From positions 14,233,142 to 14,297,141 of the forward strand of contig NC_057749.1 in the NCBI RefSeq assembly GCF_004010195.1: DNA of 64,000 nt. The letters run 5' to 3'. The position numbers and the translations under genes are program-made. Below are positions 399 through 63,045 of this stretch, piece after piece. The notes under the pieces are model-generated. The model did not search any database. It was not told where the DNA came from and was given only the letters and a program-made list of their open reading frames with translations. This DNA comes from Chiloscyllium plagiosum. Its lineage: Eukaryota. Within the stretch, counting starts at the first letter, position 1, and every line of letters begins with the position of its first letter.

Positions 399-616
399 AC
401 AGTACAGGAGAGATGGAAATGTGTTGCTGGAGAAGCGCAGCAGGTCAGGCAGCATCTAGGGAACAGGAGAATCGACGTTTCGGGCATTAGCCCTTCTTCA
501 GGAAATTCTCCTGTTCCCTAGATGCTGCCTGACCTGCTGCGCTTCTCCAGCAACACATTTCCATCTCTGATCTCCAGCATCTGCAGACCTCATTTTCTCT
601 TCACAGTACAGGAGAG
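399..616. mobile_element. Short inverted-repeat PLE-derived insertion (family 1) with hammerhead motif and 14-bp TSD
   Basis: ACAGTACAGGAGAG at 399-412 and 603-616. Arms of about 410-472 and 505-568 are reverse complements. Minus-strand CTGAAGA-AGGGC-TAAT-GCCC-GAAACGTC at about 474-501. Confidence 0.85.
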
Positions 617-786
617 GCCAAACACAGCTTTTTGAGGGGGAACCTTTGATGGCTGCCCAAACAAGGGACACCTGCAAGCCCGATCACCAGACTAGCAGCT
701 TGTACTGGGCATCCTGTAATGTTGGCATGGGCCTTCTGCCCACCATAGGAGGAATTGCTGCAGTAGCAGAAGATGCCTATAGTGGC

Positions 787-1042
787 CTCCATATACATGT
801 AGGAGAAAGTGAGGTCTGCAGATGCTGGAGATCAGAGATGGAAATGTGTTGCTGGAAAAGCGCAGCAGGTCAGGCAGCATCCAAGGAACAGGAGAATCGA
901 CGTTTCGGGCATTAGCCCTTCTTCGGGCATGCCCGTTCCTGAAGAAGGGCTAATGCCCGAAACGTCGATTCTCCTGTTCCCTAGATGCTGCCTGACCTGC
1001 TGCGCTTTTCCAGCAACACATTTCCATCTCCATATACATGTA
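787..1042. mobile_element. Short inverted-repeat PLE-derived insertion (family 1) with hammerhead motif and 15-bp TSD
   Basis: CTCCATATACATGTA at 787-801 and 1028-1042. Near-perfect palindrome centred on cgggcatgcccg (924-935). Confidence 0.87.
936..970 (+). ncRNA. Minimal type I hammerhead ribozyme motif (PLE type)
   Basis: CTGAAGA (939-945), an extra A, stem II GGGC-TAAT-GCCC, then GAAA and CGTC. The ACGT palindrome replaces helix III, with a predicted GUC cut after 966. Helix I pairing is short. Confidence 0.7.
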
Positions 1043-1659
1043 ATTAAGCAGGTGAGTGGGGTTAATTGATTCATTAATAAACCAAGTGGGGTGAACAGAT
1101 AGGATTGCAGTGGAATTAGCTATGAGACTGAGTAGTCAATAAACTCTATCCACAAAGAAAGGCATTTTGGTCTTTCTCTCACCAACTTGCTTTGGTTTGA
1201 ATTGACCTCCTGAATTTGCAATCACTTACAAATACTTTATGTGCATCCTAAGTAGCAACAGCCCTCACTGTGCCTTTTGAGAAATTCTACTTGATCTTCC
1301 ATCTACCCTATCACAATCCAATCTCCAGCCTGAAAGTGTGCCTAAAATTTAGTCACCACCTCTTAAACAAAGTGAAAATAGCTGCAGAGCCAGGAAGAGA
1401 GGAAATAAGTCATCAATCTCAATGACAAAGAGTGAGCTTTCCAAATTCCAATTATGTTCTATTAACTTTTAAAAAAAATCATTTTAATCCGTCTTCACAG
1501 TCAACTGGTTCAAATATCTTCATTACATCTTTGATGGGAAGTCAGGACAAGAAAGTTTAGGTTGGATTTTTATCAAGGAAGAAGCTTGACATGCAAATAA
1601 TTACTTCTTCCCTGCTGTTATTAGTTTGCTGAATAGATCGCTCTCATTTCAAATCGAAT

Positions 1660-1826
1660 GTTGACCTTGCCTTTGTGTGCCTTCCATGCAGTTATAACCT
1701 GTACGCCTCGCTCTGTTTAAGCACCCTATGATCAGTATGTCCTCGTTTGTTACAATCTGCCTGTATTGTTCACAAAATAAAACTTCTCACTGTACTTAGA
1801 TAGATGTGACAACAATAAATCAAATT
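1660..1826 (+). mobile_element. 3' tail of an unclassified non-LTR retroelement
   Basis: Ends aaaacttctcactgtacttagatagatgtgacaacaataaatcaaatt. A related reverse-orientation tail is at about 11680-11745. Confidence 0.4.
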
Positions 1827-3008: not shown

Positions 3009-4009
3009 CTACTAACTTGACTAGGAGAAAGTGAGGACTGCAGATGCTGGAGATCAGAGCTTAAAAATGTGTTGCTGAAAAAGCGCAGCAGGTCAGGCAG
3101 CATCAAAGGAACAGGAGAATCGATGTTTCGGGCGTAAGCTCTTCTTCAGGAATGAGGAGGGTGTGCCAAGCAGGCTAAGATAAAAGGTAGGGAGGAGGGA
3201 CTTGGGGGAGGGGCGTTGGGAATACGATAGGTGGAAGGAGGTTAAGGTGAGGGTGATAGGCTGGAGAGGGGGTGGGGGCGGNNNNNNNNNNNNNNNNNNN
3301 NNNNNNNNNNNNNNNNNNNNNNNNNNNNNNNNNNNNNNNNNNNNNNNNNNNNNNNNNNNNNNNNNNNNNNNNNNNNNNNNNNNNNNNNNNNNNNNNNNNN
3401 NNNNNNNNNNNNNNNNNNNNNNNNNNNNNNNNNNNNNNNNNNNNNNNNNNNNNNNNNNNNNNNNNNNNNNNNNNNNNNNNNNNNNNNNNNNNNNNNNNNN
3501 NNNNNNNNNNNNNNNNNNNNNNNNNNNNNNNNNNNNNNNNNNNNNNNNNNNNNNNNNNNNNNNNNNNNNNNNNNNNNNNNNNNNNNNNNNNNNNNNNNNN
3601 NNNNNNNNNNNNNNNNNNNNNNNNNNNNNNNNNNNNNNNNNNNNNNNNNNNNNNNNNNNNNNNNNNNNNNNNNNNNNNNNNNNNNNNNNNNNNNNNNNNN
3701 NNNNNNNNNNNNNNNNNNNNNNNNNNNNNNNNNNNNNNNNNNNNNNNNNNNNNNNNNNNNNNNNNNNNNNNNNNNNNNNNNNNNNNNNNCTCCGGCCTAT
3801 TACCCTCACCTTAACCTCCTTCCACCTATTGTATTCCCAACACCCGTCCCCCAAGTCCCTCCTCCCTACCTTTTATCTTAGCCTGCTTGGCACACCCTCC
3901 TCATTCCTAAAGAAGGGCTTATGCCCGAAACATCGATTCTCCTGTTCCTTTGACGCTGCCTGACCTGCTGCGCTTTTCCAGCAACACATTTTTAAGCTAC
4001 TAACCTGAC
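3009..4009. mobile_element. Larger inverted-repeat PLE insertion (family 1) spanning an assembly gap
   Basis: About 3060-3265 and 3790-3998 are reverse complements. Flanks CTACTAACTTGAC (3009-3021) and CTACTAACCTGAC (3997-4009) form a 13-bp TSD with one mismatch. Hammerhead-like motifs at about 3122-3150 (-) and 3907-3935 (+, core changed to CTAAAGA). Confidence 0.8.
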
Positions 4010-6780: not shown

Positions 6781-8139
6781 TTTAATGAGGTGCTTAACAT
6801 CATCATGGCCTCGTTATCCCATTTTATCCAATTGTAACTATCTGTACCTCTACCATGGCTACGTTTCTATCCATGCATCTTAGAGAAGGAATGGTGTCCC
6901 TGTTACACTTGAAGCCTTCAGTGACCGATGGACACCACAGGGCTGGAGTGCATTATCTTCTCCAAAATGTTATTTTAATTTAATATGTCAATTTCCTTTA
7001 AAGTTTTGTTCTTTGTGACAGTGCCCACTTTAGGGATGTTTTCAATCACTTAATTTGTTTGTCAATCATGTGAATAGCACAAAAGCCTTCAGAGAGAAGT
7101 GGACTCTGTGTAAAATACTGCGCTTTCTTTCCCCTCCAACTGCATTTTGATTCAGTTCTTGCTCTCCCTACTCACCAACCCCCACCCCAATTTCATTTTT
7201 GATGATGCGCATTGCCCATTATGGGCTTTACTCGTAAATTTCTAATTGACCGGACGGTGAATACTGGTGATAGTTAATAGTTATATGAAAACAAAAAAAA
7301 AGTCAAGGTGATTCGATGATGGGAAAGTTCTTTTGTTGTGTCTGATAACACTTCCAGATGGAAAATATTAAAATGAATAACTTAAGTTTACATTTTGGAG
7401 TCCTTGGAGAGGAAGCATGCAGTGTCCACCAATATCCTTAACATCTTTAGACATTTTAATTTAGACAGCTCCCACTCCCCTTACCTCTCCCTCATGTTTT
7501 TGATGGTCTATATTGTCCTTAATGGGATTTGCTCATAAATTATTCAATTGGAAAACATGGATAATTTACTGGCAGTGGTTAATAATTGAAAGAATACCAT
7601 GAGTGATTTGATGATAGGAAAAAGAAACATTCAGTTGTATGTAAGAGCACTCAATATATTAAATTAAAATAACATTTTGGGGAAGATAATGCACTCCTGC
7701 CCTTGTGGTGTCCACCAGTCATAGAAGCCTTCAAGTGTAATGTGTACACTGCATATTCCTTCTCCAATAATGTCCAGATAGGAATGTAGCTGTGGAAGAG
7801 GGATATGAAAAAAAAGAGAGAAAAGAAAGAAAACCTAAATGAACAGGGAATACTTATGTTTGTGCTCAGATGTCCTGGGAGACGGAGCACATGGTGTCTA
7901 CTGATACCCTGAATGCCTTCAGAAAGAGGTGAACAATGCATTATCTCCTCTTCCAACTGGGGCTATTCCTATTTCCTAATTTGTTTGGAACATGGTGGAC
8001 TTTCACAACTGTAGGGAATCAGAATAGATCAGTGGACGTGCATTGGGGTCAACTCTGAGGTCTGTTGCTCTCGATGTGGTCTCCTCTAAGCTGGGGAGAC
8101 AGGACGCCACCTCGTGGAATGCAAGCCCACTGCCCACTG

Positions 8140-8600
8140 CCCAATGGCCAACCAAGTCCTGGGCCTCCTCCACTGCCAAATCCTAGCCACCTTACACCTG
8201 AAGGAAGACTGCCTCATCTTCTGCCTTGAGACCCTCCAACCACAACATCAATTACACTAGTTTCCTCATCTCCTCTCCTCTCACCTCATCCTAGATCCAA
8301 CCCTCGGCACTGCCCTCTTGAACTGTCCCACCTATCTGCTGCACCCTCTGCTCTGACCTATTGCCATCACCCCCACCTGCATCTACCTATCACCTTCCCA
8401 GCTATCTTTCCCCCAGCCCGAGCCCTAGCTCCCCCTATTTATCTCTCAGCCCACTTCCCCACCTCCACATTCATGATGAAGGGCTTATGCCAGAAGCGTC
8501 GATTCCCTTACTCCTCGGATGCTGCCTGACCTGCTGTGCTTTTCCAGCACCACACTTTTCGACTCTGATCTCCAGCATCTGCAGTCCTCACTTTCTCCTT
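8140..8600 (+). mobile_element. PLE 3' fragment: GIY-YIG C-terminal remnant plus family 1 terminal repeat
   Basis: gtcctgggcctcctccac...gaaggaagactgcctcatcttc matches 53950-54020. Degenerate hammerhead atgatgaagggcttatgccagaagcgtc at about 8473-8500. Ends ctccagcatctgcagtcctcactttctcct. Confidence 0.75.
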
Positions 8601-8619
8601 ATATGAGACTCCCCTACCC

Positions 8620-12727: not shown

Positions 12728-12935
12728 TCATCTGAAGGTTATGATGTGGAGGTTATGGTGTTGGACTGAGGTGGACAACACCAGTCACATGACAGCAAGT
12801 CATAGTCCAACAGGTTTATTTGAAATTATAAGCTTTTGGAGCCAAAAGAGCAGCGCTCTGAAAGCTTGTGATTTCAACTAAACCTGTTGGACTATCACCT
12901 GGTGTCATGTGACTTCTGATTTCATCTGAAGGTTA
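12728..12935. mobile_element. Family 2 inverted-repeat insertion with 14-bp TSD
   Basis: TCATCTGAAGGTTA at 12728-12741 and 12922-12935. Arms atagtccaacaggtttatttgaaat / atttcaactaaacctgttggactat. Partial hammerhead gagcagcgctctgaaagctt. Confidence 0.8.
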
Positions 12936-13139: not shown

Positions 13140-13305
13140 TAGAAATCTGAAATAAAAACAGAAACTGCTAGAGAAACTCAGCAACATCCATGGCAAGAGA
13201 AACAGAGTTAACATTTCAAATCCAGTATGATTCTTCTTCAGAATAATTCAATGTTTTTCATTTTCAGACTTGCTGAGTTTCTCCAGTCCTTTCTGTTTTT
13301 AGTTA
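13140..13305. mobile_element. Family 3 inverted-repeat PLE-derived insertion (degenerate)
   Basis: Arms aaaaacagaaactgctagagaaactcagca / tgctgagtttctccagtcctttctgttttt. Minus strand carries ctgaagaagaatcatactggatttgaaatgtt. Confidence 0.6.
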
Positions 13306-13404
13306 GTACTGACTCAATGCTGTACTGGGTTTTATTCCTTGGAGTGGCACTTAAACCCACAGTGTTTTGACCCACTCAGAGGCCAGAATGAGGATCAACT
13401 AACA

Positions 13405-14884: not shown

Positions 14885-15020
14885 AACAGAAGGGTCATTT
14901 GACCTGAAATATTAACTCTGATTTCTCTCCACAGATGCTGCCAAACCTGCTGAGTTCTTCCCAGCAATTTCTAGTTTTTTGTTGCTTATTTACAGCATCC
15001 GCAGTTCTTTCGGTTTTTGT
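14885..15020 (+). mobile_element. Family 3 PLE terminal-repeat fragment
   Basis: gaagggtcatttgacctgaaatattaactctgatttctctccacagatgctgcc matches 10828-10910 and 50012-50100. Confidence 0.65.
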
Positions 15021-16029
15021 CTACCGTATCCATTAAGTCTGTGTTCCTTCGATATAATGTATTGTAAATGAGGGATCCACCAGAAAGAGGGGCAAATAGT
15101 TTTCATGGGGACCAGGACAACAAAAGCATTAACAGATTGGTAACTGCGTCTGGTGGAGAGAAGGCCAGGCAGTTAGGATTTTGAAAGTGCAATTGTAAGT
15201 GACTTGGGAGACAGTGTTTCTTTCCCCCAACAGGGACAACAAAAATGGAAGTAGACGTTAGGGAAGAAAGTGATCCAATCTGTGAACGAAACCATGAGAG
15301 CAGAAAGACAATGCAAGATGTCACAGTTTTGTGTATGTCTTTGGTGTTGGGGGGAGGGGGAAGATGCAGCTGTGAATACAAATTGGAATGCTTTTATGGA
15401 GAGATCAAGAGAAGGGTAGGATGGCCTGAATCTTATAGCGAGAGAGAGAGAGAGAAAGCACATGAAGAATTAAGATGGAGGTTCAAATTACCAAGGAGAA
15501 GTATTGGGTTTTGTATACTCCAGCCAATTAGTAAAATACCAGTAAGCTTCCCAGCATTTTCATTACCCTGACTAGCCACAGGGAAAGGTTGGAATTCAAT
15601 GTAAATAAATGAGTCTGACAAATATCCCCATTCTTTCAAGTGGTTAAAATGATGCCAATTGTCAAATGGTGATGATCATTATTTCACATTACAAATGGGG
15701 AGAAAGCATAACCTACAATTCTATATAACTTAGGTCTGGGAAAGAATTTACAGAGGTTATTGAAATTCAAGGCATATATGTTCTGCAGATTTCAGTGAGA
15801 AATTATGACAGTTGGCCTAAGGGACAACACTTACATCAGGGGTGGCTACAAAACACAATTTGGTCTGTGGTACATGCGATTTCATTAAAGTTCACCATTT
15901 GAAGGTGAAATATATAAAGCCAAAATTTCATTCAGTAACAGAAAGCCACAAATCTTTGCTGCATGAATCGGCTTCATTCACAACTTAAGTGTGATCTTGA
16001 TAGTGAGACAGGAACCTCAAGTTGACATA

Positions 16030-17915: not shown

Positions 17916-19037
17916 TTACTGGAGCTGGAGGAGCTTCACAATATGACTGAGGGATTCCACTGAAGCAAAGGCTAAGTACTGACAACAAAGCCAGACCTCA
18001 AGGTTAACACTGCACTCTGTATCGATGGCTTTCTCTGCAAATTTGATCATAAGTAGCGTTCGTTTTAGGTCCAGCCAGCTTTGCAATACATTATTTCTCT
18101 CTACAGTGCTGTTGAGGGAGTTGAGTGTCTGCAGCAAGTCATCGCGTGGTCCCCATAGGAGGCACTGCAAGTAGACTTTGGCATCTGAAATGAGGATGCG
18201 CTCTGAGGGATTAGGATGCAGGAGAAGACTTGCTAGCTGCTGCAGCCCCAGGGAGTAGACAGAGCGTATAGGGATGGCAGGTAGGTCTGTTCGAGTGTAT
18301 TCCTTCTCTTTGAGTTCTGGGTTTTCTTCAAATGGATTAGGTAGGTGCAACATCTCATAAATGAGTATACCTGTTTGAAACTCATCACACTTTTTGTACT
18401 GAGTGATGGTGATGATCTCAGGAGCTAGCCGAGACTGATCCTTCAAGGCTTCAAGATCTACCACCTGACTTTTCTGCTTGGCCTGGGAGAAGTTACTGAC
18501 AATCAGTCGGGCCAATTGTGCATTTGGATTGGTGTTTTCAGATTCACAATTTCCTGAGGTTCCTTGTCGACATCGCACCAAAAGCAAATTCTCCAGCCTC
18601 AAGTCACAGTGTGTAACGTGATGTGGCTTTAAGTGATTAAGGCCAGCACAGAGTTGCAGCAATAGTAAGCATACTTGTCGCTCATACATTTCAGGGTTTC
18701 TGCTGTGCCGTGGTGCTGATTCATGCACAAAGTCAGCAACAGTCTGGTATGGGACCTCTCGAGTGATAACCACCACTCGGCTTCTGTGTTTACTGGACGC
18801 TCCCTTGCAGGTGGGGTTGTTGCTTTTTATAGCACTTGAAACATCTGAGCTATCTTCATTTTCCTCCTCTTCTAATACTGGGGCGTTGGGATCCTCCCAT
18901 GGAAGCATACGGACTGGGACCTCAGCTAGGAAGTGCCCACAGTCCTGTTGGATGTTGAAGTGAACAGCAAGGCTCTGTCTTACAGCCAGACTGTGGTAGT
19001 ATAGCTGTTGGGATGCTTTAGCTTGACTTTTACAAAT
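17916..19037 (-). CDS. PEAK1: PEAK1 last coding exon (pseudokinase domain and C-terminal SHED helices)
   Basis: Acceptor cctttttccag|ATT TGT AAA (ICKSQAK...HFNIQQDCGHFLAEVP) is in frame with the 330-aa ORF containing HCDLRLENLLL, SNFSQAKQK, RLAPEI and WLDLKRTLLMIKFAE. Stop TAA at 17918-17916. Confidence 0.96.
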   Translation of the reverse strand: MCKSQAKASQQLYYHSLAVRQSLAVHFNIQQDCGHFLAEVPVRMLPWEDPNAPVLEEEENEDSSDVSSAIKSNNPTCKGASSKHRSRVVVITREVPYQTVADFVHESAPRHSRNPEMYERQVCLLLLQLCAGLNHLKPHHVTHCDLRLENLLLVRCRQGTSGNCESENTNPNAQLARLIVSNFSQAKQKSQVVDLEALKDQSRLAPEIITITQYKKCDEFQTGILIYEMLHLPNPFEENPELKEKEYTRTDLPAIPIRSVYSLGLQQLASLLLHPNPSERILISDAKVYLQCLLWGPRDDLLQTLNSLNSTVERNNVLQSWLDLKRTLLMIKFAEKAIDTECSVNLEVWLCCQYLAFASVESLSHIVKLLQLQ

Positions 19038-19198
19038 CTGGAAAAAGGATACAAGATAGGATCAGTGAAGAGGGTAACTTGCTCAGTGAACACAAAAATC
19101 TAACACCATTTCTAATGACACAGAAACTCCTGGAGCTGCATGTTGCCACCACCAGATGGAGCTTCATAATTTGCGAGTAGCCACAGCTATGCAAGAAT

Positions 19199-19430
19199 AA
19201 CTTCACATTTACATGATGTTGAGATGCTGGTGTTGGACTGGGGTAGACAAAGTTAAAAATCACACAACACCAGTTTATAGTCCAACAGATTTATGTTGAA
19301 GCACTAGCTTTCGAAGCACTAGCTTTCATCAGGTAGTTGAAGAAGGAGCAGTGCTCCAAAAGTTAGTGCTTCCAAATAAACCTGTTGGACTATAACCTGG
19401 TGTTGTGTGATTTTTAACTTTACATTTACA
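19199..19430. mobile_element. Family 2 inverted-repeat insertion with TSD, about 160 bp upstream of the last PEAK1 exon acceptor
   Basis: AACTTCACATTTACA (19199-19213) and AACTTTACATTTACA (19416-19430). Arms of about 19250-19332 and 19338-19421. Minus strand reads CTGATGAaagctagtgcttcGAAAGCTA. Confidence 0.82.
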
Positions 19431-23714: not shown

Positions 23715-23868
23715 TAAACCAGATTCCTAAAGAAGGGCTTATGCCCGAAACGTCGATTCTCCTGTTCCCTGGATGCTGCCTGACCTGCTGCGCTTTTCCA
23801 GCAACACATTTCCAGCTCTGATCTCCAGCATCTGCAGACCTCACTTTCTCCTCAAAGATTTAAACCAG
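23715..23868 (+). mobile_element. Solo family 1 PLE terminal repeat
   Basis: Near-identical to 936-1025 and 505-598. Hammerhead core changed to CTAAAGA. Possible 8-bp TSD TAAACCAG (23715-23722 / 23861-23868). Confidence 0.8.
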
Positions 23869-24013: not shown

Positions 24014-24244
24014 TAAGAAATACAAAGTTAAAAATCACACAACACCAAGTTATAGTCCAACAGGTTTATTTAGAAGGTCTAGCTTTTGCAGCACTGCTCC
24101 TTCAGGACAATCACCTGATGAATGAGCAACACTCCGAAATCTGGTGCTTCCAAATAAACCTGTTGGACTATAACCTGTATGTGTGATTTTTAACTTTGTA
24201 CACCCCAGTCCAACACCGGCATCTCCAAACCATTAAGAAATACA
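24014..24244. mobile_element. Family 2 inverted-repeat insertion with 11-bp TSD
   Basis: TAAGAAATACA at 24014-24024 and 24234-24244. Arms of about 24021-24105 and 24114-24201. CTGATGA at 24115-24121 followed by a degenerate stem and GAAA. Confidence 0.82.
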
Positions 24245-44270: not shown

Positions 44271-45321
44271 AATGATTAACTGAAATGTAGTGCAATGATT
44301 ACTACTGTGAAAAAAATGGAATCCGAACAGAACAAAGCTGTAGGCATTGACATTAAAGATTGCAAATTAATGTCAAGATTCTCAGTCTGTAATTTCGTGC
44401 CATTACATTTTTCTTTGGTCTTTCTTTCTTTGCTATCTACAGAAAAAGAGCAGAGAATTGCTATTCGGCATGGGATATTCCAAAAGCGAGATAAAAAAGC
44501 AAATCTCCATTGAAATTTAAGGCTTTAATTAAGCCATCTGCCCTGTGATTTTCCTCAGCCTCTCTTCATGTGCGGCAGCACCTTTCCTTAGTTATTGGAA
44601 CAAGTCTACAGTATGGGAAAAACTGTGCTGCAAAAACATTGCTAGGAATAGATCTTCAGTAGCTCTAGTTGGAATTGTGGTTTTTGACAAAAGGCTGGTG
44701 AAATATAGTGAATCGAAAATGTATTTCAAATGGATATGCCACTTGCTTGCCAAAATGTGCACTGGGACATTTTCACCCTCTCAACTGAAGTGACCCTAGG
44801 ACAGTGGAGAAATGGAACTTCAAAAGGGATTGAATCTAAGTGGATGCGAAAACAATGGGAAGGACAAGGTCCTGAAGAAATTGATATTCAGGACTTAGAC
44901 ACATCAGTTTGATAGCTTTCCTCTTGTGACATGGTGTAAATGAAATACAAGAGCTGCCATTTGATTTGCTCTGGAAATATAAGGGCTTCACAGAAAGCAA
45001 ATCAAAGACCCAAGAGATGATTGTTTGACAACTTAGAACAGATCACTCTAAGCAAAAATCACAATATATTTTTTTTTAAAATGAGTAATCTATTTCCCCT
45101 CATTTTCAATATTCTACAAATATAGCAGAAGATCAACAGAAGTGGCATACCAAAGGCAACCTTGTGAAAAATATTCACCTACATATTATAACGAAATTTA
45201 AGGCACATTTGTGAAACAGGATAAAGTACATTCACACACTTAATAGATAAGGACATGAAAAACGACTTATTCAACATTTGATAAAGAGTAAAATAAAATC
45301 TAAATAAAAGGCAACACTTAC

Positions 45322-48300
45322 TTGTTACATTTCTTTGGTGGAGGAGGTGGGGGAGAATTTTGACTGCTTAGACAGCCAATTTCTTTTTCACTTTCAGGAA
45401 CACCCATCGTCAGCTTTTCATCGTCTTGTAATCCAGATATCATAATCTGTGTTTCACTGGCAGTAGAAGGAGTTTTAGTATCTATTCCAGCGATATCCAG
45501 TTTGTCAGCCTCAGTCTTTATAGCATCTAGTCCAAGCTCCTGTTTATAATTCAGTATGGTGGTCAGCTTCTCAGTTGGTTCTAAAATCTTCTGATCACTG
45601 CAAAGGTGATGTCGTTGTATCGGGGGTGGTGGAAGCATGTGTATCACCCGTCCATTCAGTCCAATTAATTTGTCTTTATCTTTCTCTTTGTCCTCCTCTT
45701 CGTCTGTTTTACGGCGACGGAAGAAGCTTTTAAAAGAGATCCATCGTTTTGGTTTGGTGTCCTGTAAGCGTTGGCGACCCTCTGGGTTCAGCGGTGCGGA
45801 TTCAATCTCAGGTGTACGTACAGGGCTAGTTGGCTTCCCCCAGTTACTGAAGTGTTTGTGCAGAAGATTGCCGGCATGGTAAGGGGAGGATGTAGAACGT
45901 GGAGGAGGAAATGGGGGCAGTTGTTCACTCTTTGGGCTCGAGCAGGGTGCACCAGGAGATTGTAAAGTACTTGGTTTAGAAGTGGGGACAGTGACCTGCT
46001 TTGTTAGAATGCTTTCTTTTTGTCCTTTTGCAAATGTGCTGTCCATCACTTTGGACATTTCTGTTTCACTATTTGCTTGTGAGGAAAATAATGACTTTGG
46101 GCGGATGTGAACATCTCCAGTGCCTTCTAAGATAGCAGGTGGCTGAGAGTAAAGTTCTTCTGCACTATTGGCTTTGGATGGTGTCTGGGGATTTTCAGGT
46201 GGCATCTGTGGAGGCTGAATAGATGCAACAATTTGGGAAAGCACAGTGCTGGCATTTTCCCTGCTTCCTGATGATGTCTGCCTTTCTGGTGTTTCTTCCT
46301 TTCTGGCTGGTGAGTCTAGAGTAGTTCTCTGAATTCTAGAAGGAGAGCTGTGATTGGATCCGAAGCTTTTATGTGGCGAGGACTGTGACAAAATTTGTCC
46401 TTTGTTTTGGGCATTGTTGAACTCCTGCACTTTCTGCGCAACGGAGCCAAACGCCTTTCGTTCTGTGCTAGTGCTTGGTCCTTTTACTGGAGGCAAATCT
46501 GTAGATTTTCTTACTGTTGATCCAATTTCTTCATATGTATGACTTGCCACACTTTCTAAAGCTTCCTTTTTCAAATGTGATCCACTTGGACCCAAGAAGC
46601 TTTTATAAATGGCCAAGTTGTCATAAGCATTTGGATTAATTACTATTGGCACTTTTATAGCCTTGTGTTTTGAACTCTGCGCATATGTTGGTTCATCATG
46701 TATGATGATAGGGAAAGGGGGCATTCCAGCATTATTGTAACTATTGAACTTGATCTCAGACAGATTTGGAGACTTTACGGGAATAGTTTTTGAAGTAGCA
46801 TTTGAAGTAGTTGGTGAAGTAGGAGCTGATTTATGACTCATTTGTCTTGGAGGAGGAGTAGGACCAGAACTACTTGACATTAAAGCCACCCTGGGCATTT
46901 TCTGTCGAGGGCTAGTGCTAGAAGTCCACACCTCCTGATACCTGGTAATATTTGACTTTTTCTGGTTGTTTATCTGGCTTGAGAGTGACGTTGGTGGGCT
47001 TGCACTCACTGGTGAAGTTTTTGCACTTTGAAGAGATTCAGATGAACTGTCAATCTTTTTATTGTTCATTGCAGCAGATACATCAACTACAGTGTATGGT
47101 TTACACATACCTGGTGGTTCCAAATCCACAACTCTGTAAGGCTTTGCTTGTTCTTCCTTTGGAATAATGTTAATTGTCACAGTTTGCCCAGAACTTTCTG
47201 TGGAATTCACCGTGAATTCCTGCTTCTCACTTTGTAGGGCTATCTTTCCATCCTTCTCTTCCAACCTTAATGCAAGAACAGCTTTATGAGTTTCCAGAGA
47301 CTTTGCTGCAGTGCCTCTTGCTGGTTTAAATGGAGCTTGCTTTACTTGGGAAACCTGTCCGTTTTCACTTATACTTTCATAATCTGGTTCAATAAACTTG
47401 GTGCTTTTACAGTCACTTGAAGGAAGATCACCATTACAAAGTTGTTGATGCATAGTTTTGGTTGTCCCAGCTTGAGACCCCTCTGTCATTGAGGAATCAG
47501 GAGATGTAGATTCAGAAGATAATATGCTTGGCATACTGTCCTGACCATATGGGATCAACGTTTCATCACCGTAGCCATTTAGAATTTCATCGTAACTATC
47601 ATCATAGTCAACAGCACAAATTCTCTGCAATGACTGCTTTCGTAATGGCACTGTGTTCCACTTTTTACCATCACGGAACCTGACAGGTGAGAGTGTGTTG
47701 GCCCTAAAATTAGCAAAACGTGGTTGACCACGCATACGTATTTCCATTGCCAACAGCTCTTCATCACTTTCATCCCAACTTTCTCGCTCTTCTGTTGCAT
47801 TCTCACTTGCTTCATTATCCACTCCTTGATCACTGCTAAAGGACCAATCTGGGTAGCAAAAGAGTCCTCCTTCATTGCTAATGATATCAGAGCTGCTGCT
47901 GAGCATTACACGCTTTCCTGTATTCTCTCTCATACCAGCCACAATACAACTAGGAGGAAGCTTCCTTTCCAGGGACCGTTGATAACATTTGTTGATCCTT
48001 CCAAGAAAAGACTCTCTATCACATACTTTGCTTTGCAAATGTGGCTCAGGCTCAAATCCAACAATTTCCTTCAATACATCCGTTAATCCATTATTATTGT
48101 TGTTTGGCATTCTATCATTAAAAACTCTGTCTGGGTTACAAGCCCTTTGAGAATTGCCGTTGTTCTCTTCATTGTTATTGTTCACTGGTTTCCTATTGAG
48201 AAGAACACCATTCCTATTCCATCGTTGCTTATTTTCACAGCTTTCCACTACCTCCATTTCTGTACTCACAGTTTGTCCATCGATGACCATCATGGTGGGC

Positions 48301-48524
48301 TTCACAGCAATTGTTGGCTTCTTGGCAACAGGAGGTCGAAAGTTACCTGTGCCTGACCTACCCCGGTGATTGTTGCTATGGTTAGCATTAGTTTTTAAAT
48401 TCTTACATGAAAGAGGAGGTGTTTCAGAGGCAGCAGACAAACAATGCAAACTTTTGGGCTTAAAACAGTTCTTGCATTCACCAGGTTTCCACACGTGTTC
48501 AGTGAAGGCGTTGCAGGCGGACAT
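45322..48524 (-). CDS. PEAK1: PEAK1 (pseudopodium-enriched atypical kinase 1 / SgK269), first coding exon; N-terminal disordered scaffold region
   Basis: 1068-aa ORF begins MSACNAFTEHVWKPGECKNCFKPKSLH and contains SWDESDEELLAMEIRMRGQPRFANFRANTLSP, EPTYA, AYDNLAIYKSF, HTYEEI and PKRWISFKSFFRRRK, which I recognise as PEAK1. Donor AA|GTAAGT at 45322/45321 (phase 2). Acceptor ttttctttcattcctag| places the exon start at 48640. Confidence 0.97.
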
Positions 48525-48640
48525 TTTTCATAGAGCTATTCATGAGATACCCCTCGCTTACTGCATTCCACTACATTCACTGAGAAGTTTCACTTCTCAA
48601 TCACCAAGTTCATTTATCGAAGTTCAGTGTCAACCTGTAC
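48525..48640 (-). promoter_or_regulatory. PEAK1 5' UTR portion of the first coding exon, with several upstream AUGs
   Basis: Polypyrimidine tract and AG end at 48641. Five ATGs lie between the acceptor and the main ATG. Further non-coding exon(s) must lie at higher coordinates; I could not identify them. Confidence 0.7.
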
Positions 48641-49922: not shown

Positions 49923-50119
49923 TACATCTGCCTCATAAAAACTGAAAGAACTGCGGATGCTGTAAAACTGAAACAAAAACACAAGTTGCTGGAAAGCAAC
50001 TTGAGTTCTGAAGAAGGGTCACCAGACCTGAAACATTAACTTTGAATACTCTTCACGGATGCTGCCAAACCTGCTGAGCTTTTCCAGCAACTTTTGGTTT
50101 TGTGTTTTACATCTGCCTC
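49923..50119. mobile_element. Family 3 inverted-repeat insertion with hammerhead motif and 12-bp TSD
   Basis: TACATCTGCCTC at 49923-49934 and 50108-50119. Arms aaaaacacaagttgctggaaa / tttccagcaacttttggttt. CTGAAGA (50008-50014)-AGGGTC-ACCA-GACCT-GAAACATT. Confidence 0.8.
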
Positions 50120-51839: not shown

Positions 51840-52190
51840 ATGTTACAAATTTGTTCACTGAGCTGGTAGATTTTCTCTCAGACGCTTCGTCACCATGCCA
51901 GGTAACGTCATTGTTGAGCCTCTGGTGAAGCACTGGTGTTCTGTCCCACTTGCTATTTATCTGTCCTGGTTTGTTGTGGTGGATGATATCAGCACCGGAA
52001 GTGATATCACCCACCACAACAAACCGAGATAGATAAATAGCAAGTGGGTCAGAACACAAATGCTTCACCGGAGGCTCACCGATGATGTTACCTAGCATGG
52101 CGACAAAGCGTCTGAGAACAAATCTCCCAGCTCAGCAAGTAAACTTACAACCTGATCCACAACCTGAGCCACAAATCTTCTCCAAAATCC
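51840..52190. mobile_element. Family 4 inverted-repeat PLE-derived element
   Basis: About 51850-51990 and 52002-52145 are reverse complements around a short spacer. Each arm has a degenerate hammerhead (ccgatgatgttacctagcatggcgacaaagcgtc at 52079-52112). Confidence 0.78.
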
Positions 52191-53607
52191 TAACCATTAG
52201 ATTTCTGGGAAATACTGGGTCATGATGTTAGTTTGAATTCGAAGGCAGTTCCTATCAAATCTGAGAAACCATGCATCACACTGGCTTGTAAACCTGTAAA
52301 ATGCATTACCCCACTGCCACAGGTGCAAAGCCAATAAGGTCATTCAAAAGGGTTAGAAGTATTCACTTGGGAAGATGGAGGACAGGGAATTAGATACTTA
52401 AAAGTACAGAGCCACCGTAGCTAATAAAATAAGAAGACGATGCACAATAACCCAACTGGCAGACCACTGTTCTTATTGTTAACTCTTCCGCACACAAGCA
52501 TGTTAAAAGCAGCTTTAATACTGACTTCAATGCAGAAAGATGCAGGTCAGCAAATACTGCATTCAGGCATCTTTGTAGATTGCAATCAAACATGACTAAC
52601 AAAGTAAAACATTCCAAATTGTTTCCTGTCTATATAAATACTACATGGGGATTTAGTAACATGATTCATTACCACAAAACAAAGCCAAGAGTACATCACA
52701 AATTCACCACTGTACAATGGAACTGAAAATGTACTTAACACATTGGCTAGGAATCTCTTTGGTGCTGCACACAAATCTTTACTGTCACTTTATACAAGCA
52801 CGACAGATCATAGTTTAACCATATTTCCAGTAAACTTAGTGGCAGAGTAGGAACAATTCCCTAGAAATTCTCAATCAGAAGCTCCCTTTGTATTATTAAT
52901 TGTGATCTTACACAATATAATTGACCTGTAGTTTTTTTTTGTTAAATTTGAACTACCACCATTTGTAGGACAACAGTTAATGAGCAGGTGCAAACAAAAG
53001 CCATACAGTAAATTTACACCAATGCTAACAAATTCTTTAAAGGATTGCTGGATTTGAATCAGCATAGTCATCAAAAACTAATCAGTTCTTCCTTGGGCCA
53101 TACCCTACCAGGTTTCATTGAAATTTCTGCGTTAGGTTTTGAGATGGTTTGGTTGTCTGGAACAAATAAAAAAAAACAAAGGTACAAAAGGCCTGTTCTG
53201 AATTCAGGCATGATAATCCAGATTAATCTAAATGTTAAAATGGTTCCAAATGTTACATTCACTGGTGACAAAAATATACAATGTAAACTTCAGTCTATGT
53301 TTCAAGACCTTACTACCAATGAGTCTTTATCTTTTGCTAATTTATTAACAGAGAACACTAACCACATAAAAACACAATTGTTATGTACTAATTACTTAAT
53401 CTCTGTTTCAAAACAAACTCAGAATGACCAGTGCCGATACAGTATGTCTCAGAGAGGGTGCAGAGTGTTCTCAAAGGGGAGAGGAACCAGCAGGAGGTCA
53501 CTGTATACATTGGAACCAACAACGTAGGAAGGGAAAAGGAGAGATTCTGAAGGGAGAATGTCGAAAGTTAGGCAGGAATTTAAAAAGGAGGCCCTTGAGG
53601 GTGGTAA

Positions 53608-54398
53608 ACGTGACTACCTGGTCAGGTCCACGCCCCTCTACAACCCACCCTCCCATCCTGGCACCTTCCCCTGCCACTGCAGGAACTGTAGAACCTGCGC
53701 CCACACCTCCTCCCTCACCTCTATCCAAGGCCCTAAAGGAGCCTTCCACATCCAAAGTTTTATCTGCACATCCACTAATATCATTTATTGTATCCGTTGC
53801 TCCCGATGCGGTCTCCTCTACATTGGGGGGACTGGGCGTCTCCTAGCACAGCGCTTTAGGGAACATCTCCGGGACACCTGCACAATCAACCACACCGCCC
53901 CGTGGTCCAACATTTCAACTCCCCCTCCCACTCTGCTGAGGACATGGAGGTCCTGGGCCTCCTTCACCGCCGCTCCCTCACCACCAGACGCTTGGAGGAA
54001 GAACGCCTCATCTTCCACCTCAGAACACTTCAACCCCAGGCATCAATGTGAACTTCAACAGTTTCCTAATTTCTCCTTCCCCCACCTCATCCTAGTTCCA
54101 AACTTCCAGCTCAGCACTGTCCCCATGACTTGTCCGGACTTGTCCTACTTGCCTATCTCAGTTTCCACCTATCCACTCCACCCTCGCCTCCCTGACCCAT
54201 CACCTTCATCCCCTCCCCCACTCACCTATTGTACTCTATGCTACTTTCTTGCCACCCCCACCCTCCTCTAGCTTATCTCTCCACGCTTCAGGCTCTCTGC
54301 CTTTATTCCTGGTGAAGGGCTTTAACCCGAAACATCGATTTAGCTGCTCCTTGGATGCTGCCTGAACTGCTGTGCTCTTCCAGCACCACTAATCCAGA
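53608..54398 (+). mobile_element. Penelope-like element 3' part (Neptune-like: Cys-rich linker plus GIY-YIG endonuclease) with family-1-related terminal repeat
   Basis: GTFPCHCRNCRTC...FICTSTNIIYCIRCSRCGLLYIGGTGRLLAQRFREH; shifted frame RRLEEERLIFHL. Degenerate hammerhead ctggtgaagggctttaacccgaaacatc at about 54309-54336. Confidence 0.9.
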
Positions 54399-57792: not shown

Positions 57793-58843
57793 TTTGTTAA
57801 AGCTATCAAAATATTAACAGTTTCTAATGCAGGTTGGTGGACGTGAATTGCCCTAAAGCCTACCCCAGTGAGACAGAAGATCTGAATAAATATACAGCTT
57901 TTCAACTTTGTAGTTACCAAGGCAGAACAAAGCTTCAAGGAAGAGTAATGACAAGAAACATTTAATGAACACAATATGGTGGATATATGAGCCCTGTAAA
58001 GTGTCCTCTTCACTGATTAATGATTTTTTTTTGTCTGTTATATGATGCACTGTTTGTATAGTAGCACATATTGTTTAACATGTTTTGCTTCCAGCATTAT
58101 GCTCAAGCACAATTTTTTTTAAAATGAGAAGATCCTATAAAAAGTAAATACAACTTTTCTCATATTGTTACTACCAGAACCCAAATTAGATTCCGCAAGT
58201 TATTTGTTTCAGACAGAATACCCCAAATTGTCAAGCTCCCAGGTAAACAGAGATGAACTAGCTTTCCTTTTGATTCACCTGCCCCCTTTCTGGTCACTAC
58301 AAAAGATTCTGCTCCCAAAGGATACCTTTCTTCCAGGCCAAACAAAGTTTGGTATTAAAAGGAACCAATTTGACCAGGCTTTCTTGAAATAAAAGTTTGA
58401 GAAGAAATAATAACACATACACACAGATTAGAAATGAGAAGTAAATTAAACCTAATAAAGTTAAGAGAGTGTCTCTGAATCATTTGTGAAAAGCAGACTT
58501 TGAGAGTTAAGCAATCCATTTTGAGATCCTTGGCTTGGCCGGTTAGTTGAAATCCTGTTTCCTTTTGATGGTAGTTGGCTGGTAGCACAGAAACAAAAGT
58601 GTCCTTCTGTTGCTCTGTTTCTCTTTTGACCGGTTTGGTGGTCAGATGACTGCTTCTAGTTCACAGAGTAAAAGAATCCTATACCTGCAACACAACGTTG
58701 CCTAGTGAATGGTTCTTCAACTGGGACTTCACAGCACATGAGTGTTCAAGGCCAGGTTACTGTATATGAGTACCATAGTTCATTGACATACACACACACA
58801 TTAAGGTTGCTGTGGTTCTGTTCGCCGAGCTGGAAGTTTTTGT

Positions 58844-58884
58844 TGCAAACGTTTCGTCCCCTGGCTAGGCGACATCATCAGTGC
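58844..58884 (-). ncRNA. Minimal hammerhead ribozyme motif, intact core
   Basis: Minus strand GCA-CTGATGA-T-GTCGCCT-AGCC-AGGGGAC-GAAACGTT-TGC: helix I GCA/TGC, helix II with one mismatch, ACGT palindrome, GUU triplet. Confidence 0.72.
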
Positions 58885-58989
58885 TTGGGAGCCTCCTGCG
58901 AAGCGCTTCTTTGATGTTTCCTCCGGTGTTTATAGTGGTCTGTCCCTGCCGCTTAAACATCAAAGAAGCGCTTCGCAGGAGGCTCCCAA

Positions 58990-59029
58990 GCACTGATGAT
59001 GCCGCCTAGCCAGGGGACGAAACGTTTGC
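58990..59029 (+). ncRNA. Minimal hammerhead ribozyme motif
   Basis: CTGATGA at 58993-58999, then gccgcctagccaggggac, GAAACGTT, TGC. Confidence 0.68.
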
Positions 59030-59787
59030 AACAAAAACTTCCAACTCGGCGAACAGAACCACAACAACGAGCACCCGAGCTACAAATCTTCACACAAACT
59101 TNNNNNNNNNNNNNNNNNNNNNNNNNNNNNNNNNNNNNNNNNNNNNNNNNNNNNNNNNNNNNNNNNNNNNNNNNNNNNNNNNNNNNNNNNNNNNNNNNNN
59201 NNNNNNNNNNNNNNNNNNNNNNNNNNNNNNNNNNNNNNNNNNNNNNNNNNNNNNNNNNNNNNNNNNNNNNNNNNNNNNNNNNNNNNNNNNNNNNNNNNNN
59301 NNNNNNNNNNNNNNNNNNNNNNNNNNNNNNNNNNNNNNNNNNNNNNNNNNNNNNNNNNNNNNNNNNNNNNNNNNNNNNNNNNNNNNNNNNNNNNNNNNNN
59401 NNNNNNNNNNNNNNNNNNNNNNNNNNNNNNNNNNNNNNNNNNNNNNNNNNNNNNNNNNNNNNNNNNNNNNNNNNNNNNNNNNNNNNNNNNNNNNNNNNNN
59501 NNNNNNNNNNNNNNNNNNNNNNNNNNNNNNNNNNNNNNNNNNNNNNNNNNNNNNNNNNNNNNACTGGGGCAACACTACTATCATAGGGCAAGCCAGACAG
59601 AGAACAGCCAGGGAATTCCTAGAGGCATGGCATTCATCCACAAATTCCATCAACAAACACATCGACCTGGACCCAATATACCAACCACTACAGTGGACAG
59701 CTGAAACTGACAACCGGAAGCGGCAGGGACAGACCACTATAAACACCAGAGGAAACATCAAAGAAGCGCTTCGCAGGAGGCTCCCAA

Positions 59788-59827
59788 GCACTGATGATGT
59801 CGCCTAGCCAGGGGATGAAACGTTTGC
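59788..59827 (+). ncRNA. Minimal hammerhead ribozyme motif
   Basis: CTGATGA at 59791-59797, stem gtcgcctagccaggggat, GAAA at 59817-59820, then CGTT and TGC. Confidence 0.68.
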
Positions 59828-62800
59828 AACAAAAACTTCCAGCTCGGCGAACAGAACCACAGCAACGAGCACCCGAGCTACAAATCTTCGCACAAACTTT
59901 GAACATTAAGGTTGAATGGCTCTGAATCCTTTATTTGGATATTCTTTAAAGGAGAAGACAAAATCTTTCTCTCTGTCATTTCTCCTATCATGCTACAGTC
60001 TGAGCTAACTGCCAGGAGATTAGAGTTCAGTTTGTAGTACATTTCTGCTTTTTAAGTCTGTCCCTTTGAGGATTCCCTAATATTTCATCAGGCATGATAT
60101 TCCAGGGTCTCCCTACCTGGTCAACCACTAAATTTATATCCAGAATAATCTTTTGACAGTGAGTTTCTCAAATGTTATAATTAAACTTTAAAAAATGTCT
60201 GTAGGAACTTTAAGGATCCTCCAGCCTCACAACCGTACACACTATGTTAGAGAGATTAGACAGAATGTAGGTCAAGTAGTCTAAGTCTAAGAAAAGAACA
60301 GAAAAAGAAGGATACAGTGACAAGGTTAGAAATAGGGTCGGGAGAAGTTACCATGGAACATAAGTATCGGTATAGACCAGTGGGCCAAAAGATCTGTTTC
60401 TTCTTGTAAGCTCTCTAATTCATTACAAATATGCAGTCGTTGAGTCTAACAGTTTTAATCACTATGGCAGTCTTGTTGCACCAATTAACACAACTTTGCG
60501 TTTAATTAGATGTTCCATCCTATAAAACTCCTTTTGCATAATATACTATTAATCTGCCATCACTTTCATCATAACAACGTCTAATGCTCTATATCCGCAT
60601 GCTCCTCAAGATTCATTTGCATGCACAAAGTACATTCTATTGGGGTCAGACTGCAAAAGACATAATTTCTCAAAATCTCAATTTTGTGTAGATTCAGGCT
60701 TGTAAATTTGTAAATTTAATTACATAAGGCACATTATTAGAAGGAATATTTTTTCCAAATCAGAACTCTGATTTTCTCTGTTGTAGCATTAGAAGTTTTA
60801 GAAATTATAATCAAAATATCACTGTTGAACAAGAGGATTAGTTTTTAACACTCCACATGAATACATCACAATGAAACATCTGCATTCAGGGACCCTCCCC
60901 AGAACAGGGAGAAGAGTGCTCTATTGTAACTTGTAAACATAAACAAAGAAAGCTCTAATCATGCTTGTCCCTTGTTTGAAAGGAGCAAAGAGAGATTGGA
61001 TACACCAAATAATCAGTGTATTTGATATGAATCTTTACATATAAATATACAGGGGTCATGTTACTCAGTGCTCCCATTAGGGAGAGGTTAAGGTCATTGC
61101 AAGCATGCATTTCCTGTCTACATCCTTTCATTAAGGCACGATCTCTATGCCATCACAATTAGGCTAAGTGTGAATGTAAGCATCAGGATGAGTAATTTAG
61201 GTCAGTGCTCAGTCAGCACAGCTGTTGCTATCATTAGTTATACAAGTTAAGGAAATTGGTATAATATCACTAAGTTTTTCTCAAAGCTCCCCACATGCAC
61301 ACACCATCTCCTGCAGTAGAAGAAAGATTAAAAGCAGCTATTCTTACTTTCAGGTAAATGATCAAGATGAAAACACATTCAGGTAAGAGAGAGATTTGTA
61401 GGAATAGGCACAAGTCTACAGAACATGATGTTGTCAAGTGAACAGGTGAGCTACCTGAAATGTCTTCTGGCCAATTGGACTGATGCACATTCTAATGAGA
61501 AATCACCAGCAGCAATATGGAATCCTTTAAAAAAGCCAGCTGGCAAAGGCTTCGTTTTGCATATCATATTCATACCTGACCCATCGAACTTCATCAGTTT
61601 TTCACTGCTAATGACTGAAGTAGTCTACCGTGGCAGTAATTAAGTCACTGGCACATTTATTTTTCATGCCAGTTTTTTTCAATTATATGGAAGAGAGTAT
61701 TGGGCTGAGATAATCAAATACATTACACAACTTCAATGCACTTATCACACATGCAATGAGTTTCAAATGACTATGAATGTCACATCACACAAGTGTTTTA
61801 AAATTAGATCGTGATGCCATTTTTATAAATTCTTCCATCTGTCAGCAAAAACAAAGTAATATTCTCCCTTAATGAGTAGAGAATAGAAAACTCAAGCGAG
61901 AAAGGTCACCAGCTGAATAACATTGAGATTTTAGAAATTAATGGAAACTTTTGTGTATGTTCAGGAGTTAAAACAGGGAGTTCTGTCAGCTTAAAACTGC
62001 AAGAACAAAGCTCAGGGGTCATTCCCAAATTCATGCATCAAGTTGCAACACAGCTGTTTTTTTCCAACATGCTATCTACAGGGTTACAATTCAGTAATGT
62101 CTCAATGGTTTAGAGTTAAGCTAAATGAGAAAATTCTGTGCAGCAAGTTAAAACAAGGTTTTAATAAAAATAAATGCCCATGGAGTATATATTACAATCA
62201 TCATATTAGGTGATAGAGAGCTTGTTACATGTTGAGGGGAAATATCCATTAACTGTACTATAACCAGATGCTTAACATTTATAACATTGAAATCAATTTA
62301 AAAACAATTACTTGTTAGATTATTATTTTATCCCAAAGGTTCGTAAAAGAAAAGTTACTGCTGGTATGAAACAGAAAACATAATCATGTTTGCATGAACT
62401 ATTTCTGTAATACACACTGTTCTCTGATTCTCTGGCCCACTGGTTCTCTGAAATGTCCAATTTAGTCTCATTTCTCCAGTACCTTGCAAATTAGTCTTCA
62501 ACTATGTCTGTTTCCATTTTACAGGTTGCTATGGAGTTTGCATGCATCACTCTTTCAGGTAGTGTCTTTCTGATCTTAACAACACTACGACAAAGAAGTG
62601 TTCAATTCCCCTTGATTATCCTCATTGAATTATTCAATATATCATTACATCTGCCGTACTGGTTACAAACCCACTTTGTAAGGTAACACTTTCTCCCTAT
62701 TTGCTCTATTCAAGTATCTCATTTTTGACTACATGCATAATTAGATCTCCATTTAGCTTTGCACACTATAAGGAGAACAATTTCAGCTTCTTCAATCACT

Positions 62801-62884
62801 CAGTCTTGATGGTATAAAAGGCTTTGTCATAACTTTTCATAATGCGCTGCCTAGAATTGCACACAAATGTCTAGTTAGGCATCA

Positions 62885-63045
62885 CCAGAGGAAATGATGT
62901 CACCACAGGAAATTACATCACCAACCCAAGGAAATCCAGACACATAAATAGAAAGTAGGCTATACCACCAGCCATCAGTGCTTCATCCGAAGGCTCACTG
63001 AAGATGTTACCTAGTATGATGATGAAACGTCTGAAAACAAACAAA
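62885..63045 (+). mobile_element. Family 4 PLE terminal-repeat fragment with hammerhead motif
   Basis: Similar to 51993-52120. tca-CTGAAGA (62998-63004)-tgttacctagtatgatgat-GAAACGTC (63024-63031)-tga. Confidence 0.7.

Follow-up and report, generated by a model that had tools for sequence, protein, structure and literature searches.

Hairpin-shaped, hammerhead-bearing insertions in the shark Chiloscyllium plagiosum as probable insertion units of endonuclease-bearing Penelope-like elements

Penelope-like elements (PLEs), as far as the parts of the literature used here describe them, leave 5'-truncated copies with an adjacent inverted copy, an optional tail of 30-40 bp at one end and a target-site duplication (TSD), and they also leave solo terminal repeats and can be mobilised in trans (PMC8557442, PMC3846280). 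The hammerhead in the pseudo-long terminal repeat (pLTR), the inverted 5' copy and the one-sided tail are all in print (PMC8557442, PMC3846280, PMC4209133), and the minimal hammerhead ribozymes (min-HHRs) of metazoan PLEs are given a minimal, dimer-type layout (PMC4209133). Here we compare with these systems a set of short hairpin-shaped insertions in 64 kb of the genome of the shark Chiloscyllium plagiosum (contig NC_057749.1, positions 14,233,142 to 14,297,141; "the window" below means this whole stretch), together with their relatives in the 3.56-Gb assembly that contains it and to which all genome-wide searches and counts refer. The shark elements fit a known kind of PLE insertion unit, and we consider it very probable that they are the ordinary insertion units of canonical endonuclease-bearing PLEs, belonging to several families of different age. 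The original prediction had offered two alternatives, retroelements resembling miniature inverted-repeat transposable elements (MITEs) and moved in trans, or extreme 5'-truncated and inverted PLE insertions; it is the latter that fits. Our literature search on sharks found no paper describing such elements; motifs from cartilaginous fish, or data on junctions, may be contained in the supplements to PMC4209133 and PMC11167929.

Two further systems are close enough to matter. In the Poseidon element PAc of Anolis carolinensis, studied in vitro, the tail is reported to correspond to the interval that separates two neighbouring internal start sites of reverse transcription, and the element protein cuts and extends both target strands, hammerhead cleavage not being needed there (Frangieh et al. 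2024, PMC11167929, in the portion consulted). Animal non-LTR retrozymes, present in one chondrichthyan sampled, resemble the shark elements in that their hammerhead sequences come from PLE terminal repeats; according to the excerpt used they are defined by tandem head-to-tail units, whereas the shark arms were seen only as head-to-head pairs and singles (bioRxiv 10.64898/2026.07.22.740005).

Each shark unit consists of a hammerhead motif, about 60 nt of further sequence, an end that we call the "no-tail" end and a tail of 36-42 nt, and it is joined head to head to an opposite copy. In the window all seven elements listed in the original prediction proved to lie where it had placed them, flanked by duplications of 11-15 bp as it had said, and each duplicated word is present in the window solely at its two places beside the element (Table 1). 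The inverted arms, which were found independently by a repeat search, are 80-100% complementary and unequal in length, and at least three further inverted pairs that the earlier list lacked came to light (58798-59914, ~51842-52190 and ~13140-13310). The claim of at least four families is borne out by member elements, named here by their first position: family A (399, 787, 3009), family B (12728, 19199, 24014), family E (49923, 14888, 13140), which has a 34-nt block in common with family A at 88-91%, and family C/D (58798, 51842, 62917).

For the genome-wide analysis two samples of family A were combined: 30 loci picked by a no-tail query, of which 29 were usable, and the first 30 genome matches of a tail-spanning 45-mer, of which 26 were resolvable. 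The family A loci examined number 58 (L001-L058) and include 34 inverted pairs (16 in the 29 no-tail-selected and 18 in the 26 tail-selected loci), and 92 arms were sampled; for family B, 10 loci with inverted pairs were sampled. The pairs obey a simple rule: one arm carries the tail and the other does not, in 34/34 pairs of family A, in 10/10 of family B and, judged by eye, in all 9 clear pairs of the window. Among the first 100 genome matches of a 28-mer there were 21 close pairs, all of them head to head (-,+) and none in the order (+,-), and tandem head-to-tail arms were found neither in the 58 family A loci nor in the window. Copy numbers, counted as exact words across the genome, amount to 3554 (45-mer; control 0) or 7251 (28-mer) for family A and 15,108 (41-mer) for family B, and many copies of family A match the 108-nt query at 99-100% identity across some 97 nt. 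Families A and B thus comprise thousands of near-identical copies, and the families differ in age.

That the pairs are true insertions is indicated by their flanks. Exact duplications of 14-18 bp border 29 of the 34 family A pairs, and 32 of them if one mismatch is allowed, in agreement with the duplications first noted in the window; among 1180 random placements on genome loci a direct repeat of at least 11 bp turned up twice and one of at least 14 bp once. A paralogous empty site is available for the pair at L039, which is nested in an older PLE: the 15-bp word flanking it occurs twice there and once in each of 5/5 uninterrupted paralogues. It had also been proposed that the inversion is made anew at each insertion, and this agrees with what the 34 and 10 pairs of the two families show, namely junctions that differ from pair to pair and outer ends that vary by a few bases. 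The no-tail end in particular is displaced by a few bases between pairs and at some loci coincides with target homology (L014 and L034, by eye). Fillers and partial re-copies occur at the junctions, as does captured flank in a single case (L016, L020, L024, L029). At L016:1510-1926 and L024:1511-1814 the arms are held 136-263 bp apart by filler; in the filler of L016 about 31 nt of the left flank are repeated, which means that target DNA was copied while the junction formed.

The proposed link to PLEs is supported by an open frame of GIY-YIG type directly upstream of A-type 3' ends. In the window this frame (53528-54268) shows zinc-knuckle and GIY-YIG endonuclease (EN) motifs (PF01541, E 2.9e-4, 21.5 bits), and genome copies scored 22.8 bits (L069; cut-off 22.6) and 22.5 bits (L077) against the same model. 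The open reading frame (ORF) of L079, a copy of the young type, is homologous to the EN ORF of the window (tblastn E 2.3e-33), and the last 89 nt of L079 equal the short arms letter for letter (by eye). A GIY-YIG endonuclease ORF therefore occurs in the same element as the arms, and a separate non-autonomous system becomes unnecessary; the MITE-like system first envisaged is not retained, its architecture being already in print for PLEs. Upstream of the EN region lie broken, putative remnants of a reverse transcriptase (RT): an RVT_1 match in L070:637-930 (E 0.016, below cut-off) and a YIDD motif in L070 and L075 (by eye). A search of the genome with the EN protein returned 175,390 first-look candidates, whose long apparent open frames proved to be runs of N, and walks upstream from L060, L009 and L018 ended in a gap or in truncation. 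As a separate observation, the EN frame of family A stays open through the C-rich region, and its TAG stop lies about 24 nt upstream of the modal 5' end at which the short copies begin (L079:595-1500, window 3093-3963); since the frame comes so close to that end, the "terminal repeat" upstream of the hammerhead is largely coding sequence. In PAc the ORF is described as starting inside the hammerhead (PMC11167929, as far as used), in contrast to this EN ORF that ends before it, and the ATG in helix II of family A opens a frame of just about 29 codons (by eye).

The hammerhead motif on which the first reading relied holds up as a predicted structure. A strict descriptor (CTGANGA, helix II of at least 4 bp, GAAA, NN, T, H) finds 5 intact motifs in the window, whereas 100 dinucleotide shuffles gave 0.04 on average and never more than 1. 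Among families A, B, C and E helices I and II vary in sequence yet keep their pairing: helix II reads GGGC/GCCC in A, GGAGC/GCUCC in B and GGGUC/GACCU in E, with an imperfect version in family C (5/6 pairs), and the helix I pairs across families are UC/GA, CAC/GUG, GCA/UGC or GAGUU/AACUU, while helix III is a single A-U pair around CG or GC. Judged by its sequence, the motif conserves the catalytic core of PLE min-HHRs, and its helix II is predicted to be paired and its helix III to be minimal and palindromic. It shares with the metazoan PLE examples set out in the consulted part of PMC4209133 the type I layout, the CUGANGA and GAAA cores, the unpaired base before helix II, the short helix I and a helix III of one A-U pair around a 2-nt insert, giving a palindromic ACGU or AGCU. 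The same source allows some differences to be listed: helix II is 4-6 bp in the shark and 7-8 bp in Schistosoma min-HHRs, helix I of family A has just 2-3 bp, and the insert of family E is a non-palindromic ACAU, probably through CpG decay. Rfam microRNA-precursor models matched the inverted pairs at 19259-19412, 58871-59003, 12802-12895 and 51957-52036 far under their gathering scores (for example 49 versus 89 bits); the pairs are hairpin look-alikes, and false microRNA calls from them are likely.

The arms do not end at random. In the numbering of a natural family A reference copy (q), the hammerhead core lies at about q132, predicted cleavage at q160/161, the no-tail end at about q217 and the tail end at about q259. 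Of 92 family A arms 56 start at q121-134, just 5' of the catalytic core, and exact 30-mers are found 5250 times genome-wide just inside this boundary against 1359 times straddling it; family B arms mostly begin 2-10 nt 5' of their core. Among the 34 family A pairs, a start at q121-134 is seen for 30 no-tail arms and for 15 tail arms; the no-tail arm reaches further 5' in 19 pairs and the tail arm in 4. Intermediate-length family A copies also exist, with starts at q1, 26, 74, 77 and 88. The expectation that junctions would cluster at the predicted cleavage site did not hold, for only 5 of the 92 arms start at q151-165, and hammerhead cleavage was rejected as the source of the junctions on that count. 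A splice acceptor was considered as the cause of the boundary and discarded, there being no AG at that place (by eye). The family A boundary, which lies 4-5 nt ahead of CUGA, has an initiator (Inr)-like TCA|TTCC, and long family B copies have CTATAAAT about 37 nt upstream of theirs (both by eye). The sequence beyond the tail at L056 was tried as a continuation of the element and rejected as local flank: it is present at that locus alone (2 matches), L056 and L057 being a local duplication that includes the flank.

Set beside the described endonuclease-bearing PLE units of the Penelope/Poseidon type, the shark units agree in their 5'-truncated copies with an adjacent inverted copy, the tail at one end and the TSD, and likewise in the hammerhead in the terminal repeat, the upstream GIY-YIG ORF and the gaps at long copies (PMC3846280, PMC8557442). 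They depart from those descriptions, to the extent that these were available, in that most copies are extremely short (~90-130 nt per arm), share a single discrete 5' end immediately ahead of the hammerhead core, and number thousands of near-identical members; the modal duplication of 14-16 bp is also longer than the 8-10 bp quoted for Adineta vaga. With PAc they share a hammerhead about 60-100 nt upstream of the putative start sites and a predicted helix around these sites; two adjacent internal start sites bounding the tail, and the cutting and extension of both target strands, would be further common features (PMC11167929, in part).

Two side observations concern the target and the start sites. 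In the 29 family A pairs with exact TSDs, oriented with the tail arm to the right, the target displays a two-fold symmetric signature, GGK-N15-CCC, such as would result from a nick on each strand 5' of CC(C): G is found at the two sites lying 2-3 nt ahead of the duplication in 15 and 16 pairs, C at the three positions after it in 16, 14 and 13, and the duplication itself is A-rich and never begins with G (0/29). The corresponding motif of PAc, in the text consulted, is ATT (PMC11167929). Furthermore, in five families a stretch 10-45 nt upstream of the no-tail end can pair with the part of the tail that lies 9-24 nt beyond that end; the resulting Watson-Crick helix, 6-9 bp long, would place the inner start site in a loop. 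Shuffled sequences matched it, with Watson-Crick pairs only, in 6/2000 cases for family A, 16/2000 for B, 93/2000 for C and E and 489/2000 for D; the helix is therefore significant in A and B, marginal in C and E and not significant in D. With G-U pairs allowed it did not exceed shuffles for B and E, and minimum-free-energy folds of the 3' regions gave z values of only -0.6 to -1.8. Families A and E show a compensatory change in this helix.

Twin priming in the L1 element is a comparable case of inversion at integration: a second nick primes on the same RNA and yields an inverted segment within one pair of TSDs. The shark units resemble it in that last respect; in L1, however, the inverted segment and the direct one derive from separate, neighbouring stretches of the RNA, whereas both shark arms cover the same 3' region, which two adjacent internal start sites would explain. 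By analogy with the Anolis PLE (PMC11167929) the element protein would nick the two target strands about 15 bp apart, and each 3'-OH would then prime reverse transcription inside the element RNA, one at an inner start site that gives no tail and the other at an outer site that gives the tail. Template switching or end joining would then link the two cDNAs through their 3' ends, and this would account for the variable junctions, the fillers and the occasional captured flank. As a rule the no-tail cDNA would extend as far as a discrete 5' end of the RNA, located immediately upstream of the hammerhead core, and synthesis of the tail cDNA would stop earlier. Since the two arms always use different start sites, we infer that both primers use one RNA, or one ribonucleoprotein with two adjacent start sites.

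The RNA 5' end in this scheme may mark where transcription starts; alternatively, the boundary may reflect an RT stop or a dedicated short template. A more specific version holds that both nicks prime one RNA at two adjacent sites and that most insertions are run-off cDNAs from its 5' end. The start-site copy would lie about 90-130 nt from that end, which would be the transcription start before the hammerhead core, and a discrete 5' boundary in two unrelated families would be explained; we advance this joint proposal tentatively and rate it as possible but doubtful. Rare variants are shared by the arms of a pair at 4 sites versus 0.54 expected, with a maximum of 5 in 2000 permutations, and another 45 variants are confined to a single arm, many of these reflecting alignment noise at the junction; so uniform a family does not allow a decision on whether the arms had the same template. 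Raw single-cell poly(A) RNA data gave 489 reads in one run and none in another. RNA depth rises about 4.8-fold at the 5' boundary on both strands, and that of DNA-like contigs about 3.2-fold; RNA coverage tracks the copy number in the DNA and speaks neither for nor against transcription starting at the boundary. Read ends did not pile up in these single-cell poly(A) reads, a type of library unsuited to the question of self-cleavage.

Several observations weigh against taking the units as ordinary PLE insertions, or against the mechanism just outlined. The GIY-YIG copy of the window falls about 1 bit below the PF01541 cut-off of 22.6, and a Pfam search with the ORF of L079 gave no match. An intact full-length RT-EN copy of the young family A was not found among the long copies, which end in N stretches; all long copies retrieved enter these before any second direct repeat (pLTR) is visible, and both the pLTR state and an active autonomous partner are hypothetical as a result. 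All three family B elements of the window and most other arms there have decayed hammerhead cores only. A search of the window with Rfam, a check that had been suggested from the start, yielded no hammerhead match at gathering scores, nor was any of the 18 matches with E up to 10 a hammerhead, perhaps because helix III is reduced to a single pair. About 74% of family A arms end at the one discrete 5' boundary, where random 5' truncation predicts none, and a dedicated short template could produce such an end. One exact inverted junction, from q132 to q143 in the loop of hammerhead helix II, recurs 136 times on many chromosomes. Read starts do not pile up at the 5' boundary, the two strands being about equally covered. 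The model of one RNA with two start sites, finally, has the tail/no-tail rule as its sole footing, shared variants being little above those of permuted pairs.

Some of these points could be turned into a case for a dedicated non-autonomous short retroelement, SINE-like (short interspersed element) or retrozyme-like, that has few master loci and is mobilised in trans by PLE RT and EN. Its own RNA would extend from just before the hammerhead core to the start sites, and inverted pairs would arise at integration. The discrete 5' end, seen both in the family A arms and in the exact-word counts and recurring before the core in family B, is what such an element would show, as are the thousands of near-identical copies, and non-autonomous PLE derivatives are known in other organisms (PMC8557442; bioRxiv 10.64898/2026.07.22.740005, both seen in part). 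We nevertheless think it unlikely. Over the 89 nt compared by eye the arms equal the 3' end of an EN-ORF copy, and copies of intermediate length exist; a single RNA population whose members share their 5' end accounts for short and intermediate copies alike. The short copies have nothing upstream of the boundary and hence no promoter of their own, and the tandem arrays of a retrozyme are missing from the 58 loci and the window. If the Anolis analogy applies, a template would also need sequence past the start sites that the copies do not retain (PMC11167929, as far as consulted). With everything upstream of the boundary absent, the short copies were most likely dead on arrival rather than members of a self-propagating non-autonomous family.

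The recurrent q132/q143 junction (e.g. L032, L040, L043), present in 3 of 18 tail-selected pairs and dispersed over the chromosomes, is what one would expect if the palindromic unit itself were mobile and copied whole, be it as a fold-back DNA transposon (MITE) or as a hairpin RNA. Yet the other junctions differ from pair to pair, the ends are asymmetric, the tail being confined to one side, the no-tail end varies in position by a few bases and sometimes falls within target homology (by eye), duplications vary between 11 and 18 bp, and 136 copies are but a few percent of the 3554 tail arms. We regard whole-palindrome copying as very unlikely; the recurrence would be a hot spot of cDNA joining or, less likely, such copying. 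Classification as MITEs in the strict sense, with symmetric terminal inverted repeats and a fixed short duplication, was considered and rejected on the unequal arms, the one-sided tail, the variable junctions and the 11-18 bp duplications. That the palindromes are artefacts, mis-joined from reads of a high-copy repeat, might be suspected from the longer pairs, which coincide with gaps (3282-3789 and 59102-59562), and from the trouble that tandem and inverted PLE structures are said to cause in short-read assemblies (PMC8557442, in the part used). Against this stand the unique flanks with exact duplications in 29 of 34 pairs, the paralogous empty site of L039, the exclusive head-to-head order of the 21 close pairs, and seven raw 150-nt RNA reads with seven different starts that run across an inverted junction; an artefact is thus extremely improbable, and insertion of ordinary PLE copies is the reading that we keep.

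Table 1. PLE-derived units, their arms and related features (positions in the window unless a locus is named; TSD, target-site duplication)
Feature	Position	Strand	Details
Family A inverted pair	399..616		TSD 399-412 + 603-616 (14 bp); arms 100% complementary over 64 nt
Left arm of 399..616	~413-504		inverted, no tail; intact hammerhead motif 474-501(-)
Right arm of 399..616	~505-602		sense, with tail; starts 1-2 nt past predicted cleavage site
Family A inverted pair (locus L001)	787..1042		TSD 787-801 + 1028-1042 (15 bp); arms 97%
Left arm of 787..1042	802-927		inverted, with tail
Right arm of 787..1042	~936-1027		sense, no tail; intact hammerhead motif 939-966(+)
Older family A subfamily, long inverted pair	3009..4009		TSD 3009-3021 + 3997-4009 (13 bp, 1 mismatch); spans assembly gap 3282-3789
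Arms of 3009..4009	3022-3281 and 3790-3996		left with tail, right without tail; 95% over 209 nt; both extend into C-rich end of PLE ORF region
Family B inverted pair, old	12728..12935		TSD 12728-12741 + 12922-12935 (14 bp); arms 83%; tail on left; hammerhead core decayed
Family B inverted pair	19199..19430		duplication 19199-19213 + 19416-19430 (15 bp, 1 mismatch; ~6 of 15 bp may be homology with the element's own end); arms 90%; tail on left; hammerhead decayed
Family B inverted pair	24014..24244		TSD 24014-24024 + 24234-24244 (11 bp); arms 80%; tail on right; hammerhead decayed
Family E inverted pair	49923..50119		TSD 49923-49934 + 50108-50119 (12 bp)
Arms of 49923..50119			left inverted, tail ~40 nt; right without tail, intact hammerhead motif 50008-50037(+)
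Family C unit	58798..59914		TSD 58798-58809 + 59903-59914 (12 bp); arms 97-99%; order: no-tail inverted arm, partial sense copy, gap 59102-59562, open-frame end (59565-59807, no Pfam match), sense arm with 40-nt tail
Family D inverted pair, old	51842..52190		tail on right arm; arms 84% over 150 nt; hammerhead decayed; duplication decayed, ~11/14 (by eye)
E-like unit	13140..13310	-	sense arm with intact hammerhead motif 13210-13241(-); 35-nt inverted arm 13270-13304
Single family A arm with tail, not inverted	23724..23853	+	95% to 399 element; begins at modal 5' end just before hammerhead core
Older family A-like single sense copy	8300..8597	+	tail present; long C-rich upstream part
Single family E sense arm with tail	14888..15022	+	
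D-like single arm	62917..63041	+	intact hammerhead motif 62998-63031(+)
5'-truncated older PLE copy	53528..54389	+	open frame 53528-54268, then family A-like 3' region with decayed hammerhead 54306-54389
Body-tail helix regions	14905-15022; 52002-52190; 59718-59905; L002:1537-1634; L095:319-412		

The surroundings of these units in the window are those of a host gene on the minus strand, with exons at 17916-19061(-), 27762-28802(-) and 45318-48527(-) and the PLE pieces in its introns. One exon encodes a kinase-like domain (Pfam Pkinase, E 1.1e-12); two long open frames of the gene (346 and 1069 aa) had no Pfam match. Unrelated to the PLE families is an open frame of the LINE (long interspersed element) type at 21325-23076(-), with a weak RVT_1 match (E 9.4e-5) and broken by the assembly gap 21334-21844. 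Equally outside these families are adjoining inverted repeats at 6894-6986 and 7656-7749 (48-49 nt, 96% and 80%) around some 670 bp of unrelated sequence, maybe a DNA-transposon remnant or an inverted duplication.

For annotation, the units should be masked as PLE fragments, and not as MITEs, SINEs or microRNA precursors, and they account for assembly gaps at long inverted copies. Intronic pairs, such as those in the kinase-like host gene of the window, have transcripts from both strands, and these would fold into long RNA hairpins. With very large and partly very young families, a single genome records thousands of independent integration events, from which the PLE integration pathway (start sites, priming on both strands, cDNA joining and target) could be read by genome-wide tabulation. 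If the tentative proposal of one-RNA priming and run-off were true, short inverted pairs would be an obligatory by-product of internal initiation and hammerhead cleavage would have no role in setting the copy ends, a reading not yet in print in the literature that we searched.

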